NCBI GenBank assembly: GCA_004377005.1
Contig: SOIV01000160.1
Coordinates: forward strand, 1 to 57,135
DNA from: Candidatus Aminicenantes bacterium
Lineage (GTDB): Bacteria; Acidobacteriota; Aminicenantia; Aminicenantales; Aminicenantaceae
Length of the DNA stretch: 57,135 nt
Reading direction: 5' to 3'
A program made the position numbers and the translations under genes. Under the pieces are notes generated by a model. It saw only the letters and a program-made list of their open reading frames with translations. It made no database searches and was not told the origin of the DNA. Shown one piece after another: positions 2,635 through 48,207 of this stretch (within the stretch, counting starts at the first letter, position 1; each line of letters begins with the position of its first letter).

Positions 2635-3051
2635 TTATGGCCTCTTCCTCACATTTTCCTTAATCCAATCAGCAATATCCTGTGTAGATGAACCCGGCAA
2701 AAAAGTCTTGGATATTCCTATTTTTTCCAAAAAAGGGATATCTTTATCAGGAATAATTCCGCCTGCAATAACAGCGATATCATCTGCTCCTTTTTCTTTA
2801 AGGAGATCCATGATTTTTGGAAAAAGCACATTATGGGCACCAGAAAGGATGCTCAAACCTACCACATCAACATCCTCCTGAACGGCTGCATTGACAATTT
2901 CATCCGGTGTTCGCCTTAGGCCTGTATAGATCACTTCATACCCAGCATCCCTTAAAGATCGACAGATCACTTTAGCACCCCGGTCATGCCCATCCAGACC
3001 TGGTTTTGCTATCAGCACCCTAATGTTCTCGCCAGTCATAAAATCCTCCAT
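2635..3051 (-). CDS. Methylmalonyl-CoA mutase family, small B12-binding subunit
   Basis: 138 aa with the canonical DxHxxG motif (DGHDRG) and a flavodoxin-like B12-binding fold. It lies directly downstream of the large mutase subunit. Confidence 0.9.
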
Positions 3052-3126
3052 TCATCAAGCAAGATTAACGGACATGACATCTTTTCTCATCCTCCTACTT
3101 ATTTAGTCGTTTTTCTCATCTATTAA

Positions 3127-4806
3127 TTAATATGTAATAGGTTCTTGGTATTCTCCGTAAACTTCTCTCAAAGAATCCATGATCTCCCCTAAAGTTGCGT
3201 ATGACTTGACACAACTCAATATATAGGGCATCAAATTCTGTTTATCTGAAGCTGCCTTTTTCAGGTCGAGTATTTTTTCCCCGACTTGGGCATTATTCCT
3301 TGTTTTCTTAACATCATGCAAGCGAGCCATGTGCTGTTTAGCAACAGCTTCATCGATTTTTAAAAAGGGAATAGGCTTATGTTCCATCTCATAGGCGTTA
3401 ACTCCCACAATTATCTTTTCTTTTTTTTCAACGGCTTTTTGATACAAATACGCACTATCAGCTATCTCCTTTTGAGGAAATCCGAGTTCTATAGCTTTAA
3501 CCATCCCTCCCATATCATCAATTTTTCTGATATATTCCTTAGCATCCCTTTCCATTTCATCTGTCAGCTTTTCAATAAAATAGGATCCCCCCAAGGGATC
3601 AATACAATTGATTACGCCACTCTCATGAGCGATGATCTGCTGAGTTCTCAGGGCAATAGTCACAGCCTCTTCAGAGGGTAAAGCATAAGTTTCGTCAAGA
3701 GAATTTGTATGGAGGGATTGGGATCCACCTAAAACTGCGGCCAGAGCTTGGATGGCAACTCTTACCACATTGTTATAAGGCTGTTGGGCCATCAAAGAGA
3801 CTCCCGATGTCTGAGTGTGAAACCTCAGCCACCCGCACCTCTGATCCTTTGCTCTAAACCTTTCTTTCATCACCTCTGCCCAAATCCTTCGGGCCGCTCG
3901 AAATTTGGCAACTTCCTCAAAAAAATCATTGTGAGCATTAAAGAAGAAGGAAAGTCGAGGCACAAACTCTTCGACATCAAGTCCTCTCTCCTGTGCCCAC
4001 TCCACGTACTCGATCCCATCCCTGAGAGTAAAAGCCAGTTCCTGGACAGCTGTAGATCCCGCTTCCCTTATATGATAGCCTGAAATGGAAATGGTATTCC
4101 ACCTGGGAACTTCTTGGGATCCGTATTCAAATGTGTCAACAATCAGTTTCATAGAAGGTTCTGGGGGGAAAATGAAGGTTTTTTGAGCGATATATTCCTT
4201 TAGAATATCATTCTGAATTGTTCCCGAGATTACTTTTGGAGAAACGCCCTGTTTTTCAGCAACAGCAATGTACATGGCCCACAAAACTGCAGCAGGGGCA
4301 TTTATAGTCATAGATGTCGATATCTTGTCCAGGGGAATCTCGTTAAAAAGAATTTCCATATCCGCCAAGGAATCTATTGCTACTCCGCATTTTCCTATTT
4401 CTCCCTGAGCCAGAGGATGGTCAGAATCAAAGCCCATTATGGTAGGAAGATGGAAGGCAACACTCAATCCTGTTTGTCCATGAGAGAGAAGATATTTGTA
4501 TCTTTTATTTGTGTCTTCAGCTGTCCCGAAACCTGAAAACTGTCTCATGGTCCACAGGCGGCCGCGATACATGGTCGGATGGATTCCCCTGGTATACGGA
4601 TATTCCCCGGGAAAACTCAATTGCTTCAAGTAATCGAAACCATCAAGATCAAGAGGTGTGTAAAGCTCTTTAATTTTTTTCCCTGAAATCGTTGTGTATT
4701 CCATCTTCTTAGAAGAAGCCTTTTTCAATGCCTTATCGTACTTTTCCGCTTTCCAGTGGCTAAATGAGTGTTTCAAGCTCACCTCGGAGGAGCTATTCTT
4801 TTTCAA
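3127..4806 (-). CDS. Methylmalonyl-CoA (acyl-CoA) mutase family, large catalytic TIM-barrel subunit
   Basis: 559 aa with typical mutase stretches ([44 protein letters not shown]). Substrate specificity (methylmalonyl- versus isobutyryl-CoA) cannot be determined by eye. Confidence 0.9.
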
Positions 4807-31816: not shown

Positions 31817-32029
31817 TTGAATAAATTATAGATTTTTCCTGCTCACCAGTCAAACCCCGCATTTGCCTTTCCAAATGCTATTTATTAAAATAAGCACGCT
31901 CTATCTAGAAATCAAAAATTAAAGTAGACTACAAAGTTCAAGTTTTCACTATATTTTGAAAAAGAAATTTTGATTATCAAGCAATTTTAATGGAAATAAA
32001 CAAAGCTTTTTAGCTGGGGATTGTAAAAA

Positions 32030-33193
32030 ATGAAAAAGAAAATAACAACAGCATCAGATTTAAGAAGAGCACAATACATAAAAAATCTCCTGGAAAAAAA
32101 ACCAAAAGATCAAAAATTCTGTGTTCTTGGGGCTGGACACGGCGGATTGGCCATGGCTGGTCATCTGGCCATTAAAGGATTCAATGTTAACCTTTATAAT
32201 CGGGGACGAAATAGGATCAAACCTGTCATACAAAGAAAAGGAATCAAGGTCGAAGGAGAAGTCAAAGGATTCGGAAAGATTGAGCTTGCTTCGACCAGCA
32301 TACAAGAATGTATCAAGGACGTAGATGTCCTCATGGTCGTTGTGCCAGCCTACGCTCACCCTTTCATCGCCGAAGCCTGTGCGCCATACCTTAAAGAGAA
32401 TCAGGTGGTTATCCTCAATCCTGGCCGGACAGGAGGAGCACTGGAATTCTATAACGTACTCAAGCAAAAGAAGCTGAAGCGATTTCCTTTTATCGCCGAA
32501 GCACAGACATTCCTTTACGCTTCAAGAGCTCTCGGACCGGCACATGCCAAAATATTTTCTATCAAAAATTCTGTTCCCCTGGCAACCCTTCCAGCTTACT
32601 GGATTCCCGGTGTTTTAAAAATCATCAATAGAGCTTTTCCCCAATTTATTCCTGGAGACAATATCTTCAAAACAAGTTTTGAAAATATCGGCGCCATATT
32701 TCATCCCGCCCTCACTATTCTGAATGCAGGCTGGATCGAATCGACTTATGGCGATTTCGAGTATTACATTAAAGGAGCAAGCCAATCTGTTGCCCAGGTT
32801 CTCGAAAAACTGGACAAGGAACGCCTGGATGTTGCAGCAGCTTTAGGCATAAAAGTCATGAGTGCCAGAGCCTGGCTTTACACAGCTTACAGTGCCACAG
32901 GAAATAACCTCCATGAAGCTATTCAAGACAACCCCGGGTATCTAGGAATTAAGGCTCCTGACAGGCTTCACCACCGCTATGTCGATGAGGACGTACCTAT
33001 GAGCCTCGTCCCTCTTGCTTCCATAGGAGACATGCTCAAAGTCGAAACGCCAACCATAAAATCCATCATCCGCCTTGCTTCAATAATGAGGGGAATAGAT
33101 TTCTGGAAAAAAGGCAGAACAGTTAAAAACTTAGGAATTAAAGGAATGACTATTAAAGAAATTCGCCTTCTGGCTGTGACCGGAGAACTATAA
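32030..33193 (+). CDS. NAD(P)-dependent opine (octopine/nopaline) dehydrogenase family protein
   Basis: 387 aa with an N-terminal Rossmann motif (VLGAGHGGLAMAGHLA) and a C-terminal region resembling the opine dehydrogenase helical domain. It is the first gene of a 4-gene coupled unit. Confidence 0.65.
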   Translation: MKKKITTASDLRRAQYIKNLLEKKPKDQKFCVLGAGHGGLAMAGHLAIKGFNVNLYNRGRNRIKPVIQRKGIKVEGEVKGFGKIELASTSIQECIKDVDVLMVVVPAYAHPFIAEACAPYLKENQVVILNPGRTGGALEFYNVLKQKKLKRFPFIAEAQTFLYASRALGPAHAKIFSIKNSVPLATLPAYWIPGVLKIINRAFPQFIPGDNIFKTSFENIGAIFHPALTILNAGWIESTYGDFEYYIKGASQSVAQVLEKLDKERLDVAAALGIKVMSARAWLYTAYSATGNNLHEAIQDNPGYLGIKAPDRLHHRYVDEDVPMSLVPLASIGDMLKVETPTIKSIIRLASIMRGIDFWKKGRTVKNLGIKGMTIKEIRLLAVTGEL

Positions 33194-33194
33194 A

Positions 33195-34835
33195 GTGGGG
33201 TCAGTCAACAAAAAAAAAATTTTAGGAGCTCCCGTAGGCAATTGTGTTCATGTCGCAGGCATCCTTAATTTTCTAAAATTAGCTGAACGCTGCGGCTATG
33301 AAACACTTTTCCTAGGTCCCGCCGTTTCTGTAGAAAAAATATCAGAAGCTATAAAACAGCACAATCCAAACCTTATCGCTATCAGTTATCGCTTAACTCC
33401 CGAAGTGCTTAAAAAATTATTGACTGCTTTAAAAAAAGAGGTCGAAAAAAACAGATGGCAGGATAAGACTTTTATATTTGGTGGAACACCGCCCACCGCC
33501 GAAGTCGCCCGTAAAAGCGGATTATTTGAAGCTACATTCGGGGGTCTCGAGCCTCGAGAAGACATAACCTCTTTTCTCAAAGGGAAAGTCGAAGAAGTAA
33601 AAAAAGATGAAATTCCTCCACAGAATCTCATCGACCGAATAGCTTTCAATGGTTCTTATCCTCTTCTCCGCCATCATTTCGGCCTGCCTACAGTCAAAGC
33701 GACTGTGGAGGGGGCCAGAGAAATTGCGCTCTCTGAAACAGTGGATGTCATTTCCATCGGACCTGACCAAAATGCCCAGGAGAGTTTTTTCCGTCCGGAT
33801 GAAATGAAAAAAGAGCAAGATGGCGCAGGAGGAGTTCCTTTGAGGAAACCTGAAGATCTTGAAGCCATTTATAAAGCAACACGCTGCGGCAACTATCCCC
33901 TGCTCCGTTGTTATTCCGGCACAAGAGACCTTATTAAATGGGCAGAGATGTCGCATAAAACCATAAACATTGCCTGGGGAGCTGTTCCTCTTTGCTGGTA
34001 CAATAAGCTTGATGGCCGCTCTGACCGAACTCCTGCAGATTCCATCGCAGAAAATCAGCAGGTAATGAAATGGTACGCTGAGCATAAAATCCCTCTCGAA
34101 GTTAATGAATCTCACCACTGGAGCCTGAGGGATGCTCATGACACAGTTGCAGTAACAGCGGCTTTTCTAGCAGCGTATAACGCAAAAAAAATGGGAATAA
34201 CTCATTATGTGGCCCAGTATATGTTCAACAATCCGGCTCAAACATCTCCTTTGATGGATTTAGCTAAGATGCTGGCAAAAATAGAGCTTATCGAATCTCT
34301 TCATGATGAAAATTTTACGAGTATTCGCCAGACGAGAACGGGTTTGGCTTGCCTTTCTCCCGATCCCGATGTTGCCAAAGGCCAGCTCTCCTCTTCCTGT
34401 TTGTTCCAGATGACCCTGGAACCAAAGATAGTCCATGTAGTCGGATTCTGCGAAGCAGACCATGCAGCAACTCCACCAGATATAATTGAAAGCGCCAAAA
34501 TCACGCTGGGCATCATAAAGAATTTCTCTTTGGGTGCTCCTCAAATTCTTGATGACCCCAGGATAAAAGAGAGAAAGGAGGAGCTTGTCGAGGAAACAAA
34601 ATATCTTCTCCAGGCATTTAAGAACCTCGCTGCTGATAAAGTCAAGGATCCCTGGACTGATCCTGAAACCCTTGCCCAGGCCATTCATAGAGGCCTTCTT
34701 GACGCCCCCCATCTTGCAGGTAACCCGTATGCCACCGGGAAGGTTCATACTCAAATCAGGGATGGAGCCTGTTATGCCGTTGATCCCCAATCAGGAAATC
34801 TTTTGAGTGAAAAGGAAAGAATCTCTCGAATTTAA
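33195..34835 (+). CDS. B12-binding-domain fusion protein, mutase-like (GlmS-like N-terminus plus a large, possibly GlmE-like C-terminal domain); function unknown
   Basis: 546 aa with a GTG start 1 nt after the upstream stop. Residues 8-125 align by eye with glutamate mutase S (KKILGAPVGNCVHVAG versus KTIVLGVIGSDCHAVG, and FIFGG versus LYVGG). The resemblance of the C-terminal ~400 aa to the E-subunit TIM barrel is only tentative. Confidence 0.5.
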   Translation: MGSVNKKKILGAPVGNCVHVAGILNFLKLAERCGYETLFLGPAVSVEKISEAIKQHNPNLIAISYRLTPEVLKKLLTALKKEVEKNRWQDKTFIFGGTPPTAEVARKSGLFEATFGGLEPREDITSFLKGKVEEVKKDEIPPQNLIDRIAFNGSYPLLRHHFGLPTVKATVEGAREIALSETVDVISIGPDQNAQESFFRPDEMKKEQDGAGGVPLRKPEDLEAIYKATRCGNYPLLRCYSGTRDLIKWAEMSHKTINIAWGAVPLCWYNKLDGRSDRTPADSIAENQQVMKWYAEHKIPLEVNESHHWSLRDAHDTVAVTAAFLAAYNAKKMGITHYVAQYMFNNPAQTSPLMDLAKMLAKIELIESLHDENFTSIRQTRTGLACLSPDPDVAKGQLSSSCLFQMTLEPKIVHVVGFCEADHAATPPDIIESAKITLGIIKNFSLGAPQILDDPRIKERKEELVEETKYLLQAFKNLAADKVKDPWTDPETLAQAIHRGLLDAPHLAGNPYATGKVHTQIRDGACYAVDPQSGNLLSEKERISRI

Positions 34836-36262
34836 TGAAAAATCCTCCATCCCTCGCATTTGAAGATCACTTTAACATTTCTCTGGGTGACCTCCAAAAA
34901 ATCTTGGATATTTCTCTTTCCCGTGGCGGCGATTTCTCGGAAATATACCTGGAGTATAAAATCTACAATTTTATCAACATGGAAGAAGATATCATCAAAG
35001 AAACAGCAGAGAGTATAAGTCTTGGGTTGGGCATAAGAGTTTTATCGGGCGAAAAAACAGGATACGGCTATACCAACGACCTCTCCTTTGCCAAAATCAA
35101 AAAAACTGCCCTTACAGCGGCCTCTATTGCCTCAAGTCGCGCCCTGAGGGAGGCTTCTCCCCTGAGTCCAGTCCAATTTCATCATAACTTTTATCCAGTC
35201 CTGGAGTCACCTCACAAGGAATCTCTTGAGAAAAAAATATCCTTTGTCAAAGAAACATATCATTCCGCCCAGAATTTCGATCGAAAAATAAAAAAAGTGA
35301 AGGTTTCCTTCCTGGATCACACTCAGTTCGTGACCATTCTCAATTCAGAAGGATTAAAGGTCTCCGATGTCCGTCCTCTTATTAAACTGGCCTGTCTGGC
35401 AATTGCTGAAAAAGAGGACAAAAGAGAGACAGGCTTCTCTGGAGGAGGAGGAAGAGTGGGCATGGAATATTTCTCCACCGATCTCACTCCTAAGGAAATA
35501 GGTCAAGATGCAGCAAAGGAAGCCTTGGAGCTTCTCGAAGCGGCCTTGCCGCCTGCCGGGGAGATGCCTGTAGTGCTTGCCCCTGGTCACAGCGGAGTTT
35601 TGGTTCATGAAGCAGTAGGACATCTGCTCGAAGCAGATTTTATCCGTAAGAAAACCTCAATTTTTTGGAATAAGATGGGAAAAAAAGTAGGCAGCAGCCA
35701 GGTTACGATCTACGATGACCCGACTATTCCCTATTTTCGAGGCTCTTATAATATAGACGATGAAGGCACAATCCCCAAAAAGACCCTTCTCATCGAAAGA
35801 GGAAAAATGGCAGGTCTTCTTCAAGACAGGCTTTCAGCCAAATTGATGCGAAGGCCTCTCACTGGTCACGGCCGAAGACAAGACTATTCATGCATTCCTA
35901 TTCCAAGGATGAGCAATACCTACATAGACAGAGGAAGGTACTCCCCGGATGAAATCATCAAGTCTGTGGAAAAGGGATTTTATGCCCACAAATTCCTGGG
36001 AGGTCAAGTGGAAGATTCAGGAAAGTTCACCTTTTCAGTCAGCTCAGGCTATCTTATAGAAAACGGAAAACTGACCGCACCTGTGAAGCAGGCTACTCTT
36101 ATAGGAACCAATATTGAGATCCTAAAAAATATTGCAATGATCGGCTCTGACCTTAAATTTGGTCTTCAAACAGGAACCTGCGGAAAAGAAGGCCAGGCGA
36201 TTCCGGTTATCGATGGCTGCCCCACGATAAAAATTTCCAGGATGACAGTGGGAGGACAATAG
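34835..36262 (+). CDS. tldD: TldD family metalloprotease
   Basis: 475 aa with an HExxxH motif (VHEAVGHLLE) and the conserved C-terminal PmbA_TldD fold ending ...MTVGG. TAATG overlap with the upstream gene. Confidence 0.9.
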   Translation: MKNPPSLAFEDHFNISLGDLQKILDISLSRGGDFSEIYLEYKIYNFINMEEDIIKETAESISLGLGIRVLSGEKTGYGYTNDLSFAKIKKTALTAASIASSRALREASPLSPVQFHHNFYPVLESPHKESLEKKISFVKETYHSAQNFDRKIKKVKVSFLDHTQFVTILNSEGLKVSDVRPLIKLACLAIAEKEDKRETGFSGGGGRVGMEYFSTDLTPKEIGQDAAKEALELLEAALPPAGEMPVVLAPGHSGVLVHEAVGHLLEADFIRKKTSIFWNKMGKKVGSSQVTIYDDPTIPYFRGSYNIDDEGTIPKKTLLIERGKMAGLLQDRLSAKLMRRPLTGHGRRQDYSCIPIPRMSNTYIDRGRYSPDEIIKSVEKGFYAHKFLGGQVEDSGKFTFSVSSGYLIENGKLTAPVKQATLIGTNIEILKNIAMIGSDLKFGLQTGTCGKEGQAIPVIDGCPTIKISRMTVGGQ

Positions 36263-37608
36263 TGGAAAAGGGAAAAAAGCCCATGAAGCTCAAAGAACTG
36301 GCAGAAAGCCTGGTGACTTTTGGAAAAGTCAACGGAGCGGATGAAGTTGAAATATCCATCTTGGACGGCTATGAATTCAGCGTCGATGTAAGATTGGGAA
36401 AAATAGAAAACCTGGTTGAGGCAGGTTCCAGGTCCTTGGGCTTGAGAGTCATCAAGGATAAAAAAACTGCCTTTGCCTCTTCTTCAGATTTATCCAAAGA
36501 GGCACTCGAGCATCTTGTGAAAAATGCCATAAAGCGGACGAAGTTAGCCAGCCCTGATGAATTCTCAGGACTCCCCGCTCTCTCAAAAAAAAGAGTTGAC
36601 ATCCCTTCCTTAAAGCTTTTTGACCCTGAAATCCCAAGCCTGGATTCAGAAAAGAAGATTGCTCTGGCTACAGAGACAGAAAAAATCGCTCTCGAGGATA
36701 AAAGAATCACAAACTCCCATGGATCAAGCTTTGAAACTACAGAAATAAGAATAATTTTTGCAAACTCGAACGGCTTCCTTGAGGAATACGAGCAAACATT
36801 TTGCGGCCTGAGTATTGGCCTCCTGGCTGGAGGAACAGACAATCAAGTTGAAGACTATTGGTCCTCCTCAAAGCTCCATTTCAAAGAATTAGATTCACCA
36901 GAAGAAGTCGCCAAAAAAGCAGTGGAGAGAACAGTGCGGCAAATTAAACCCAGGAAAATAAAGACACAAAAAGTTCCTGTTATCTTTGAACCTACGATGA
37001 CCTCCTGGCTTCTTGGTTTTCTTTTTGGATGTGTTTCTGGAGTGTCTATCTACAAGAAAACTTCCTTTTTGGTCGATAAGCTGGGAAAAAGGATTGGGAA
37101 TGAAAGAGTGACTGTTTATGACGACGGTCTTATGCCCGGAAGGCTGGGGACAAGACCTTTTGACGCCGAAGGTGTACCCAGCCAAAAAACTCTTGTTATG
37201 GATAAAGGAATTCTCAAAAACTACCTGTGCAACACTTACGCCGCCCGGAAACTGAAGCTCAAAGCAACAGGAAGCTCAAGCGGCACCAGTGTCAGTCCAA
37301 GTAATTTTTATCTTAAAGCCGGAAATACGCCTCCGGAAAAAATCGTCTCCTCCCTGGAAAAGGGCTTAATCCTTATCAGAACCATCGGGCATGGACTCAA
37401 TCCTGTAACCGGGGATATCTCCAGAGGAGCATTCGGCTTATGGGTTGAAAAAGGAGAAATTGTCTATCCGGTTTCAGAAATAACTATCTCCGGGAATCTC
37501 GGTGAAATCTTGAATAATATAGAAGTTGTTGGAAATGACCTTGACTTCCGGAGTCCCCTCGCCGGCCCGACAATAAAAATAAAGGAACTGACAGTAGCCG
37601 GCCAATAA
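36262..37608 (+). CDS. pmbA: PmbA/TldE family protein (TldD partner)
   Basis: 448 aa. The GTG start overlaps the tldD stop and has a GGGAGG RBS; an alternative ATG lies at 36283. PmbA_TldD fold without HExxxH, ending ...LTVAGQ. Confidence 0.88.
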   Translation: MEKGKKPMKLKELAESLVTFGKVNGADEVEISILDGYEFSVDVRLGKIENLVEAGSRSLGLRVIKDKKTAFASSSDLSKEALEHLVKNAIKRTKLASPDEFSGLPALSKKRVDIPSLKLFDPEIPSLDSEKKIALATETEKIALEDKRITNSHGSSFETTEIRIIFANSNGFLEEYEQTFCGLSIGLLAGGTDNQVEDYWSSSKLHFKELDSPEEVAKKAVERTVRQIKPRKIKTQKVPVIFEPTMTSWLLGFLFGCVSGVSIYKKTSFLVDKLGKRIGNERVTVYDDGLMPGRLGTRPFDAEGVPSQKTLVMDKGILKNYLCNTYAARKLKLKATGSSSGTSVSPSNFYLKAGNTPPEKIVSSLEKGLILIRTIGHGLNPVTGDISRGAFGLWVEKGEIVYPVSEITISGNLGEILNNIEVVGNDLDFRSPLAGPTIKIKELTVAGQ

Positions 37609-47983: not shown

Positions 47984-48180
47984 AGGGACATCCCCACAGA
48001 ATCATTCAGCTTATGGATTGAAGAAGGAGAAATTGTCTATCCTGTTTTAAGAATAATCATCTCCGGGAATCTGGGGGAATCCTGAATGATAGGGAAATAG
48101 TTAGAAATAATCTCGACTTTTGGACTGCCCTCTCCGGTCAGATAATTAAGACCAGCGAAATGACCGTAGCCGGGCAGTAA
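47984..48180 (+). pseudogene. Displaced, frameshifted duplicate of the last 198 nt of pmbA
   Basis: It aligns by hand to 37411-37608 with about 46 differences, including a 1-nt deletion. There is a shared 19-nt identical core AAGGAGAAATTGTCTATCC (37451-37469 / 48024-48042). Correcting the deletion gives ...GNLGE(I)LNDREIVRNNLDF...MTVAGQ*, ending at a TAA in the same position as pmbA. Confidence 0.85.
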
Positions 48181-48207
48181 GAATGTAATCTATTATTTTT
48201 TTCTTTT

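Follow-up and report, generated by a model that had tools for sequence, protein, structure and literature searches.

A conserved opine dehydrogenase-cobalamin mutase gene pair, likely an independent neighbour of tldD-pmbA, in a Candidatus Aminicenantes genome

We describe four consecutive genes at positions 32030-37608 of a 57,135-nucleotide (nt) stretch of DNA from a Candidatus Aminicenantes bacterium (contig SOIV01000160.1 of assembly GCA_004377005.1; the whole stretch is called the window below). The genes encode an opine dehydrogenase homologue, a cobalamin (B12)-binding protein of 546 amino acids (aa), and the metalloprotease subunits TldD and PmbA. The results make it likely that the four genes are two independent two-gene units that have become one tightly packed operon in the window's genus, and that neither unit needs the other. 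The first unit (32030-34835) would combine an NAD(P)H opine dehydrogenase with a single-chain, probably adenosylcobalamin-dependent, radical isomerase, and the second (34835-37608) would be the family's core cytoplasmic TldD/PmbA peptide-degrading metalloprotease. The features discussed are the following.

31817..32029, no strand: divergent intergenic region between nadC (- strand) and the opine dehydrogenase gene (+ strand), 213 nt
32030..33193, + strand: opine dehydrogenase homologue, 387 aa (Pfam PF02317; PDB 1bg6)
33195..34835, + strand: single-chain glutamate-mutase-like cobalamin protein, 546 aa, GTG start (B12-binding domain and predicted GlmE-like barrel)
34835..36262, + strand: TldD metalloprotease subunit, 475 aa (three PmbA_TldD domains, HEAVGH)
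36262..37608, + strand: PmbA (TldE) subunit, 448 aa, GTG start (three PmbA_TldD domains, no HExxxH)

Results

Gene order across phyla

More than 8000 relatives of the 546-aa B12 protein (called the mutase in what follows) passed our word filter, and relatives are encoded at 598 genome loci in bacteria and archaea; the family ranks among the largest families of B12 enzymes that still lack an assigned reaction. The neighbourhoods analysed are those of the best 80 of the 598 loci, i.e., the most query-like part, with at least 51% identity. By their record labels these loci come from Acidobacteriota, Gemmatimonadota, Bacteroidota, Ignavibacteria-type bacteria, Bacillota, Armatimonadota, Chloroflexi and Cloacimonadota, as well as from several candidate phyla and from Asgard and methanogen-type archaea. 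A dehydrogenase gene is found directly 5' of the mutase gene in 68 of the 72 loci that have at least 1.2 kb of upstream sequence; among the four exceptions, two loci end at the 3' end of the mutase gene, and one further locus has the dehydrogenase downstream. Clustering of 939 neighbouring open reading frames (ORFs) identified two recurrent third partners, namely an AsnB-like protein (25 of the 80 loci) and a D-Ala-D-Ala ligase (Ddl; 10 of the 80 loci), and no conserved transporter, lyase or CoA-transferase adjoining the pair. Judged by gene order, dehydrogenase and mutase form a genuine, uncharacterised unit that is both conserved and widespread.

Genes for TldD/PmbA are near the mutase gene in only 7 of the 80 loci, all of them of Aminicenantes type (one, labelled Eubacteriales, matches the window at 94% identity); the remaining 73 loci, which represent about a dozen phyla, have none nearby. 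The locus with the deviating label is L026 (CAYTBG010000038.1), where the 94% identity extends from ileS to pmbA; its record is labelled 'uncultured Eubacteriales bacterium', a label that looks wrong for an Aminicenantes-type sequence.

The pair itself was predicted by Zhang, Rodionov, Gelfand and Gladyshev (BMC Genomics 2009, PMC2667541) from 11 genomes in four phyla. The window agrees with the family described there in having a distant B12-binding domain at the N terminus and an adjoining octopine/nopaline dehydrogenase (pfam02317) gene, which in that description is always adjacent and here lies at a gap of 1 nt. The D-Ala-D-Ala ligase and asparagine synthase genes that the same text places nearby in some genomes are reproduced in our 80 loci. 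The description makes no glutamate-mutase-like barrel assignment and names no reaction; the fold is assigned in the present analysis. The window differs from the 2009 family in that its pair is joined to tldD-pmbA and its AsnB-like gene is unlinked. A literature search returned no characterised system for the gene set or for the pair, publication in subscription journals being possible.

Gene order within the family

The family survey covers 46 genomes of the window's own family. A tldD orthologue is present in 42 of them at 60-97% identity (next-best matches do not exceed 45%), and in 20 of the 21 family genomes without the dehydrogenase or mutase. The backbone of the family consists of ileS, nadB and nadC divergent from tldD and pmbA, which in turn converge on nitroreductase and tricorn genes (ileS-nadB-nadC<>tldD-pmbA><nitroreductase-tricorn). 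Among the 20 tldD loci fetched, the slot between nadC and tldD holds nothing recognisable in 11, the dehydrogenase alone in 6, and the dehydrogenase with the mutase in 2; in the remaining locus the contig ends at tldD.

Dehydrogenase and mutase are 0-10 nt apart in each of the 13 family loci measured, and tldD and pmbA overlap by 1 or 4 nt in 27 of the 28 family loci with both gene ends readable, whereas the seam between mutase and tldD ranges from -4 to 206 nt and is tight only in the window's genus (g1) and in genomes G176 and G016. From these junction lengths, the four-gene block consists of two tightly coupled pairs that meet at a variable seam. The two pairs also occur apart, in three of the 13 family genomes with the window's mutase form: G013 and G223 carry the dehydrogenase-mutase pair on a contig other than that of tldD, and G007 has the pair beside nadC and no tldD orthologue. 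In a quick tree, 29 locus-linked TldD sequences fall into one clade apart from two paralogues of the window genome (Shimodaira-Hasegawa-like approximate likelihood ratio test, SH-aLRT, 96), and the three slot states are interspersed within this clade, at a low resolution.

Under the reading of two independent units, the dehydrogenase-mutase pair would fill the variable slot between nadC and tldD, and the spacer would have shrunk to an overlap in the window's genus, where tldD-pmbA is probably read through from the promoter of the first unit. An earlier note on this DNA (the original prediction) had instead suggested that the four genes could be one module of linked proteins, with gene neighbourhoods as a means of checking it. 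Its proposal survives for the dehydrogenase and the B12 protein, which occur together across phyla and would work together in accordance with the 2009 prediction (PMC2667541). It is not supported for TldD/PmbA, since tldD persists in family genomes that lack the rest of the module, and the co-occurrence is essentially confined to a narrow lineage, a pattern that the note itself had equated with chance adjacency.

Junctions, local signals and expression

The four + strand ORFs fill 32030-37608 at exactly the positions given in the original prediction, with gaps of +1, -1 and -1 nt, and all three tight junctions were read directly in the sequence: 1) between dehydrogenase and mutase, a TAA stop codon (33191-33193) is followed by a single base and the GTG start at 33195, 2) mutase and tldD meet in TAATG (34833-34837), and 3) tldD and pmbA meet in TAGTG (36260-36264). 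A GGAG is located 10 nt 5' of the mutase start and a GGGAGGA 8 nt 5' of the pmbA start, for which an alternative is the ATG at 36283, seven codons further in. The tldD gene has no well-placed Shine-Dalgarno sequence, the nearest AGGA being ~19 nt upstream, which fits re-initiation at the TAATG. Tight or overlapping junctions are the commonest spacing within bacterial operons. They demonstrate the operon-like packing that had been claimed for this genome and do not demonstrate a shared function; the window is a caution for operon reading in general, in that stop-start overlaps can arise between unrelated neighbours.

In the segment 31500-38200, promoter-like sites are not above chance (11 compared to 8.6 in shuffled sequences), and terminator-like sites number 8 compared to 8.0 in the shuffles, none of them at any junction. 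The intergenic region 31817-32029 presumably holds the promoter of the opine dehydrogenase gene; the sigma-70-like site found there at 31863-31891 is weak (9 of 12 positions) and not above chance. The same region has no unusual fold (z 0.03) and no Rfam match; neither a riboswitch nor a structured leader turned up in the window.

Twenty public sequencing runs match all or part of the stretch, and six of these are RNA libraries. Contigs of four RNA libraries from three studies were aligned to the four genes. One contig of 1846 nt, with 41 differences, covers 33849-35694 across the mutase/tldD junction, and another covers 33009-33376 across the dehydrogenase/mutase junction; among the records listed, none bridges the tldD/pmbA junction at 36262 by at least 31 nt, and parts of the four genes are without a contig in one or other of the four libraries, but such coverage gaps carry no weight. 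Co-transcription in the window's genus is plausible, and the contigs give a weak hint of it in a close relative.

Fold and family of the 546-aa protein

Pfam detects a B12-binding domain in residues 8-107 of the 546-aa protein (E = 2.4e-10) and nothing in the remaining ~430 residues. The cobalamin motif reads C17-V-H19-V-A-G22, i.e., CxHxxG, which is found in 28 of the 29 near-full-length members of the window's mutase form. An AlphaFold (AF2) model computed from 36 relatives has a mean predicted local distance difference test score (pLDDT) of 93. In Foldseek it comes closest to 1cb7_B, the E chain of glutamate mutase (E = 7.6e-17; template modelling (TM) scores 0.60/0.68; 434 columns), followed by lysine 5,6-aminomutase, ornithine 4,5-aminomutase and methylmalonyl-CoA mutase, and residues ~145-546 are modelled as a GlmE-like triosephosphate isomerase (TIM) barrel. 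The barrel is recovered by hhalign when the protein is compared with a profile of 36 true GlmE sequences drawn from Bacillota genomes (probability 94.8% in local and 96.8% in global mode, residues 106-545). The 36-sequence GlmE alignment was needed for this result; a single GlmE sequence gave a probability of 1.2%, and phmmer and a 36-sequence profile run against PDB chains matched only the B12 domain.

In three relatives (P0154, P0163 and P0155) the protein is joined in one chain with MutL (PF13941), glutamate mutase's accessory protein of the GlmL type, and a fourth (P0135), which also has an ATP-grasp domain, matches the Pfam model Met_asp_mut_E (E = 1.5e-6, 27.5 bits with a cut-off of 26.6); the window's protein has no match to this model. 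On account of the fold match, the GlmE profile match and the MutL-fused relatives, the 546-aa protein is, as modelled, a single-chain fusion of S-like and E-like parts and a glutamate-mutase-type enzyme. The structure comparison thus bears out the term 'mutase-like' used in the original prediction.

A B12 Rossmann domain and a GlmE-type TIM barrel are common to this protein and glutamate mutase (GlmS/GlmE with GlmL, EC 5.4.99.1; structures 1cb7, 1ccw, 1i9c and 6h9e). The His and Gly of the motif are kept, and GlmL/MutL is fused to some relatives. There are differences as well: glutamate mutase has two subunits (S and E) in place of one 546-aa chain, and Cys17 stands where the aligned corrinoid protein 4jgi has Asp. 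Furthermore, R66, R100, R149, E171 and Y181 of GlmE, which we take to be the residues that grip glutamate, align in hhalign to H161, Q195, Y240, P265 and D273 (1cb7 numbering, checked against 1cb7_B; the mapping rests on the profile alignment). The GlmE residues are kept in 34, 34, 36, 32 and 34 of the 36 GlmE sequences, respectively, and their replacements are kept in 35, 34, 36, 33 and 36 rows of the 36-row mutase-family alignment. One genome of the Halanaerobiales, G229, has both a true GlmE and a protein of the 546-aa type. Glutamate mutase as the identity of the protein was rejected by these tests, the motif being CxHxxG and not DxHxxG, the five pocket residues replaced, and the protein a single chain. 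The protein is probably an adenosylcobalamin-dependent radical isomerase with a different substrate pocket, B12 dependence having indirect support from the kept His19 and Gly22, the mutase fold and the MutL-fused relatives.

The dehydrogenase

The 387-aa protein matches Octopine_DH (PF02317) in residues 210-353 (E = 1.5e-47) and the Rossmann-type models ApbA and NAD_Gly3P_dh_N in residues 30-129. Over nearly its full length it aligns with N-(1-D-carboxyethyl)-L-norvaline dehydrogenase of Arthrobacter (1bg6; E = 6.4e-72, residues 28-379 against 5-355), with which it has the two-domain layout in common, and it also matches 3c7a, an octopine dehydrogenase (E = 2.2e-07). It is a member of the opine dehydrogenase family, with an NAD(P) Rossmann domain, an Octopine_DH helical domain and a full-length likeness to a characterised enzyme. 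Its clade is distinguished from 1bg6 by the pairing with a B12 mutase; we know of no characterised opine dehydrogenase with such a partner.

Two mutase forms and an AsnB-like enzyme

In the family, the dehydrogenase is present in 25 of the 46 genomes and the mutase in 24. All 24 mutase-bearing genomes have the dehydrogenase, a mutase is absent from the 21 genomes that lack the dehydrogenase, and the single dehydrogenase-bearing genome that lacks a mutase is G014, with a completeness of 82%. There are two forms of the mutase, which are never found together in one of the 46 genomes: 1) the form of the window, in 13 genomes (68-100% identity, ~546 aa, CxHxxG), and 2) a second form, in 11 of the 24 (31-37% identity, ~620-650 aa), which mostly has no linkage to the dehydrogenase and has DxHxxG (DAHTLG or similar) in all 14 of its proteins that were extracted. 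The second form shares 13 of the 14 barrel signature positions checked, W309 being replaced by F. Because the barrel signature is common to both, the two forms are probably isofunctional, and the difference between Cys and Asp would concern cofactor handling rather than substrate. Carriers of the second form include G010, G011, G019 and G022 (loci L020-L023 and L119-L128); in G010 and G019 the adjoining gene encodes a tricorn protease, and in G078 an opine dehydrogenase with 41% identity.

Two observations are new. The dehydrogenase co-occurs with one or the other mutase form in 24 of the 25 genomes, and an AsnB-like homologue is present but unlinked in the window genome. The latter is encoded on contig C304 and has 56% identity to the linked copy of a relative from the same class; its nearest match is AsnB of E. 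coli (E = 1.4e-50), with carbapenam and beta-lactam synthetases ranking behind. Its N terminus, V/M-S-G-I-A-G, has Ser at the position that, we assume, is occupied by the nucleophilic Cys in AsnB. An orthologue of this protein is present in 15 of the 25 dehydrogenase-bearing family genomes compared to 1 of the 21 others. On C304 (L149:9342-14578), the gene of the Cys-less AsnB homologue converges on the genes for hydantoinase/oxoprolinase A and B, and genes for myo-inositol-1-phosphate synthase and two methyltransferases are located a few genes away.

TldD and PmbA

Each of the two proteins contains three PmbA_TldD domains; HEAVGH is located at residue 258 of TldD, and HExxxH is absent from PmbA. 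In this respect, and in forming a gene pair, they resemble E. coli TldD/TldE (PmbA). Their best NCBIfam models are TldD (E = 1.1e-121, 406.6 bits) and PmbA (E = 2.7e-94, 316.4 bits), but these scores are below the equivalog cut-offs (513 and 438, respectively), so that on sequence scores they are members of the family and not certified equivalogs of the E. coli proteins. The Pfam, NCBIfam and PDB matches agree with all four family names originally given (opine dehydrogenase, B12 protein, TldD and PmbA).

The window's TldD has no signal peptide; the 8 open codons upstream of its start contain no twin-arginine translocation (Tat) motif. Four TldD/PmbA-type pairs are encoded in the window genome, and Tat or general secretory (Sec) signals are present on the three besides that of the window. 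These other pairs are located on contigs C36 (L150:7785-10683), C325 (L151:1676-4547) and C33 (L152:516-4027) and adjoin M1, M14 and S41 peptidase genes. Two of the TldD paralogues have twin-arginine signals (RRKFLK and RRSFIK) and their PmbA partners have none, an arrangement that suggests that the two subunits are exported together in folded form; in the C33 pair the N termini are Sec-like.

A Tat-like in-frame extension is also found on 5 of the 31 TldD genes of the orthologous clade, in G014, G224, G011, G015 and G023 (loci L129, L146, L143, L130 and L135, respectively), and G219 has a degenerate remnant. The extension is ~30 codons long, has a twin-arginine motif and an N-C-K stretch, and is preceded by AAGGAG-type sites, which give it a ribosome-binding site of its own, and by a GTG or TTG start. 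It would seem that some genera export the orthologous TldD and others retain it in the cytoplasm. In G014, G224 and G011 the Tat-bearing tldD stands right after the dehydrogenase gene, which argues against an obligatory cytoplasmic partnership there.

The presence of TldD/PmbA next to two enzymes could also be read as a cluster for a ribosomally synthesised peptide that is modified post-translationally (RiPP), in which the B12 enzyme and the dehydrogenase would modify a peptide and TldD/PmbA would cut its leader. TldD/E remove the leader of microcin B17 (PMC5810440), and TldD/E genes feature in papers on biphenomycin-type clusters that mention cobalamin. We nevertheless regard a RiPP-like cluster as extremely improbable. 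The region 31817-32029 contains no + strand ORF of at least 20 aa, which confirms the earlier statement that no precursor-peptide ORF is found upstream, and none of the four proteins has a radical S-adenosylmethionine (radical-SAM), YcaO or similar peptide-modifying domain. Moreover, the B12 protein has the fold of a small-molecule isomerase, the dehydrogenase matches an opine dehydrogenase of free amino acids (E = 6.4e-72), and the pair occurs without TldD/PmbA in 73 of the 80 loci.

Discussion

Possible chemistry of the pair

We propose that the dehydrogenase would join an amino acid to a 2-oxo acid reductively to yield an N-(carboxyalkyl) amino acid, or would split such a compound, and that the mutase, with adenosylcobalamin bound His-on, would rearrange the carbon skeleton of this N-(carboxyalkyl) amino acid or of its precursor. 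The Cys-less AsnB homologue on C304 would amidate a carboxylate, and the product, a modified amino acid of small size, would most likely be a compatible solute. In seven of the eight Bacillota loci chosen for the test, a cyclic di-AMP (c-di-AMP) riboswitch (RF00379, 98-117 bits) is located just 5' of the dehydrogenase gene. Such riboswitches are more typical of osmotic and cell-envelope functions, and the Bacillota context suggests a role of the pair in osmotic balance.

The pair could, on the other hand, be catabolic, with an imported opine split oxidatively or with the mutase opening an amino-acid fermentation, and with TldD/PmbA co-expressed for peptide degradation in a proteolytic sediment bacterium. 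Opine dehydrogenases are generally reversible, the top structural neighbours of the mutase (glutamate mutase, lysine aminomutase and ornithine aminomutase) serve amino-acid fermentations, and the genome is rich in peptidases (four TldD/PmbA pairs, M1, M14, S41 and tricorn). A catabolic role appears improbable to us in view of the 80 loci, where no transporter, lyase or CoA-transferase is conserved beside the pair and the recurrent partners, AsnB-like and Ddl, are amide-forming enzymes, and in view of the Bacillota riboswitch, a type of control more typical of osmotic and envelope functions.

We also considered a joint pathway in which an unprecedented adenosylcobalamin rearrangement on an opine would be combined with amidation or cyclisation and with a feed from TldD/PmbA. 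In such a pathway the dehydrogenase would make an N-(1-carboxyalkyl) amino acid, and the mutase would shift CH3-CH(COO-)-X to -OOC-CH2-CH2-X, where X is the nitrogen substituent and no pyridoxal phosphate (PLP) is involved. The Cys-less AsnB homologue would amidate or cyclise the product to give a new solute or signalling compound, and peptide breakdown by cytoplasmic TldD/PmbA would feed the pathway in the Aminicenantes family. The full combination strikes us as quite improbable.

Two units or one pathway

Several points weigh against the reading of the four genes as two independent units with the chemistry outlined above. Of the 13 genomes with the window's mutase form, 8 keep the four-gene order on a single contig, and two more are split at contig ends in a manner consistent with this order; the dehydrogenase adjoins tldD in 8 of the 11 genomes whose DxHxxG mutase lies elsewhere; and in G010 the order is dehydrogenase-tldD-pmbA-mutase, with a mutase of the second form. 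Such persistence could reflect selection for co-expression, although nadC-nadB-ileS on the opposite flank persist to an equal degree, so that it is not distinguishable from plain synteny. Tat-like signals are found in none of the 12 four-gene loci compared to 5 of the 19 others, in genomes that are few and related, and the protease could be kept cytoplasmic where it follows the mutase. The TldD tree is provisional, and the RNA-library contigs cannot prove a single transcript, as DNA may contaminate such libraries. A literature search for the roles of the five GlmE pocket residues returned no relevant paper, and these roles stay as assumed. The solute idea rests on the riboswitch context of another phylum, and the window has no riboswitch; the cofactor form, substrate, product and direction of the pair's pathway are predictions only.

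Some of these results would also agree with a recruitment of TldD/PmbA into the pathway of the pair in the Aminicenantes family. The protease would then free the amino-acid substrate from peptides, or hydrolyse an amide or a pseudopeptide that the pair makes or consumes, and it would take the place of the AsnB-like amide-forming enzyme of other phyla. In the other Aminicenantia families sampled, an AsnB-like gene follows the mutase gene in all five loci that run past the mutase 3' end (L113-L117), and in the window's family this third slot is held by tldD-pmbA. The adjacency of dehydrogenase and tldD in eight genomes without an adjacent mutase, the tight mutase/tldD junction in genus g1, G176 and G016, the RNA-library contig that bridges this junction, and the lack of an export signal on the window's TldD, when the three other pairs of the genome have Tat or Sec signals, all point in the same direction. 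Recruitment is nonetheless unlikely in our judgement: the tldD orthologue is present in nearly all family genomes without the module (20 of 21), and 73 of the 80 module loci have no TldD/PmbA nearby. In addition, G013, G223 and G007 separate the units or lack tldD, the dehydrogenase-adjacent TldD of G014, G224 and G011 is probably exported, away from NAD(P)H/B12 chemistry, and the AsnB-like gene has not been replaced but is present on C304.

Two independent units thus remain our preferred reading of the four genes, in which TldD/PmbA is a neighbour by synteny, and this reading spares effort on the peptide-modification hypothesis. The partner clues narrow the search for the substrate of an orphan B12 family, and they place two constraints on its characterisation, namely that one dehydrogenase works with either mutase form (CxHxxG or DxHxxG) and that the occurrence of a third, AsnB-like enzyme follows that of the pair also where its gene is unlinked. 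To the pair predicted in 2009 (PMC2667541), the window adds a family-specific operon fusion, the pattern of two mutase forms, and the unlinked third enzyme.

Surroundings of the four genes

The assembly of the window is metagenome-derived, 1.9 Mb in size and 83% complete. The four genes are flanked on the 5' side by nadC, nadB and ileS on the opposite strand and on the 3' side by a convergent class V aminotransferase gene. The last ~200 nt of pmbA (37412-37608) are duplicated at 47985-48185, 10,573 nt downstream, the copies being 83% identical along 95 nt and 77% identical along 201 nt. The island that separates them (~37.6-48.0 kb) contains the aminotransferase gene, unknown ORFs, and genes for HlyD and two resistance-nodulation-division (RND) pump proteins, and its GC content is 0.48 compared to ~0.42 elsewhere. 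The nitroreductase, DUF362 and tricorn genes, which directly follow pmbA in five other genera, are located in the window beyond the second copy of the pmbA 3' end. It looks as if ~10.5 kb had been inserted into the 3' end of pmbA. In G002, from the same genus, the pump genes are present and the aminotransferase gene is absent.

Elsewhere in the window, genes for the large subunit of a methylmalonyl-CoA mutase and for a separate small subunit that binds B12 are located at 2635-4806 on the - strand, so that the organism has at least one other adenosylcobalamin enzyme; they are followed by genes of the tricarboxylic acid (TCA) cycle at 6.4-14.7 kb.

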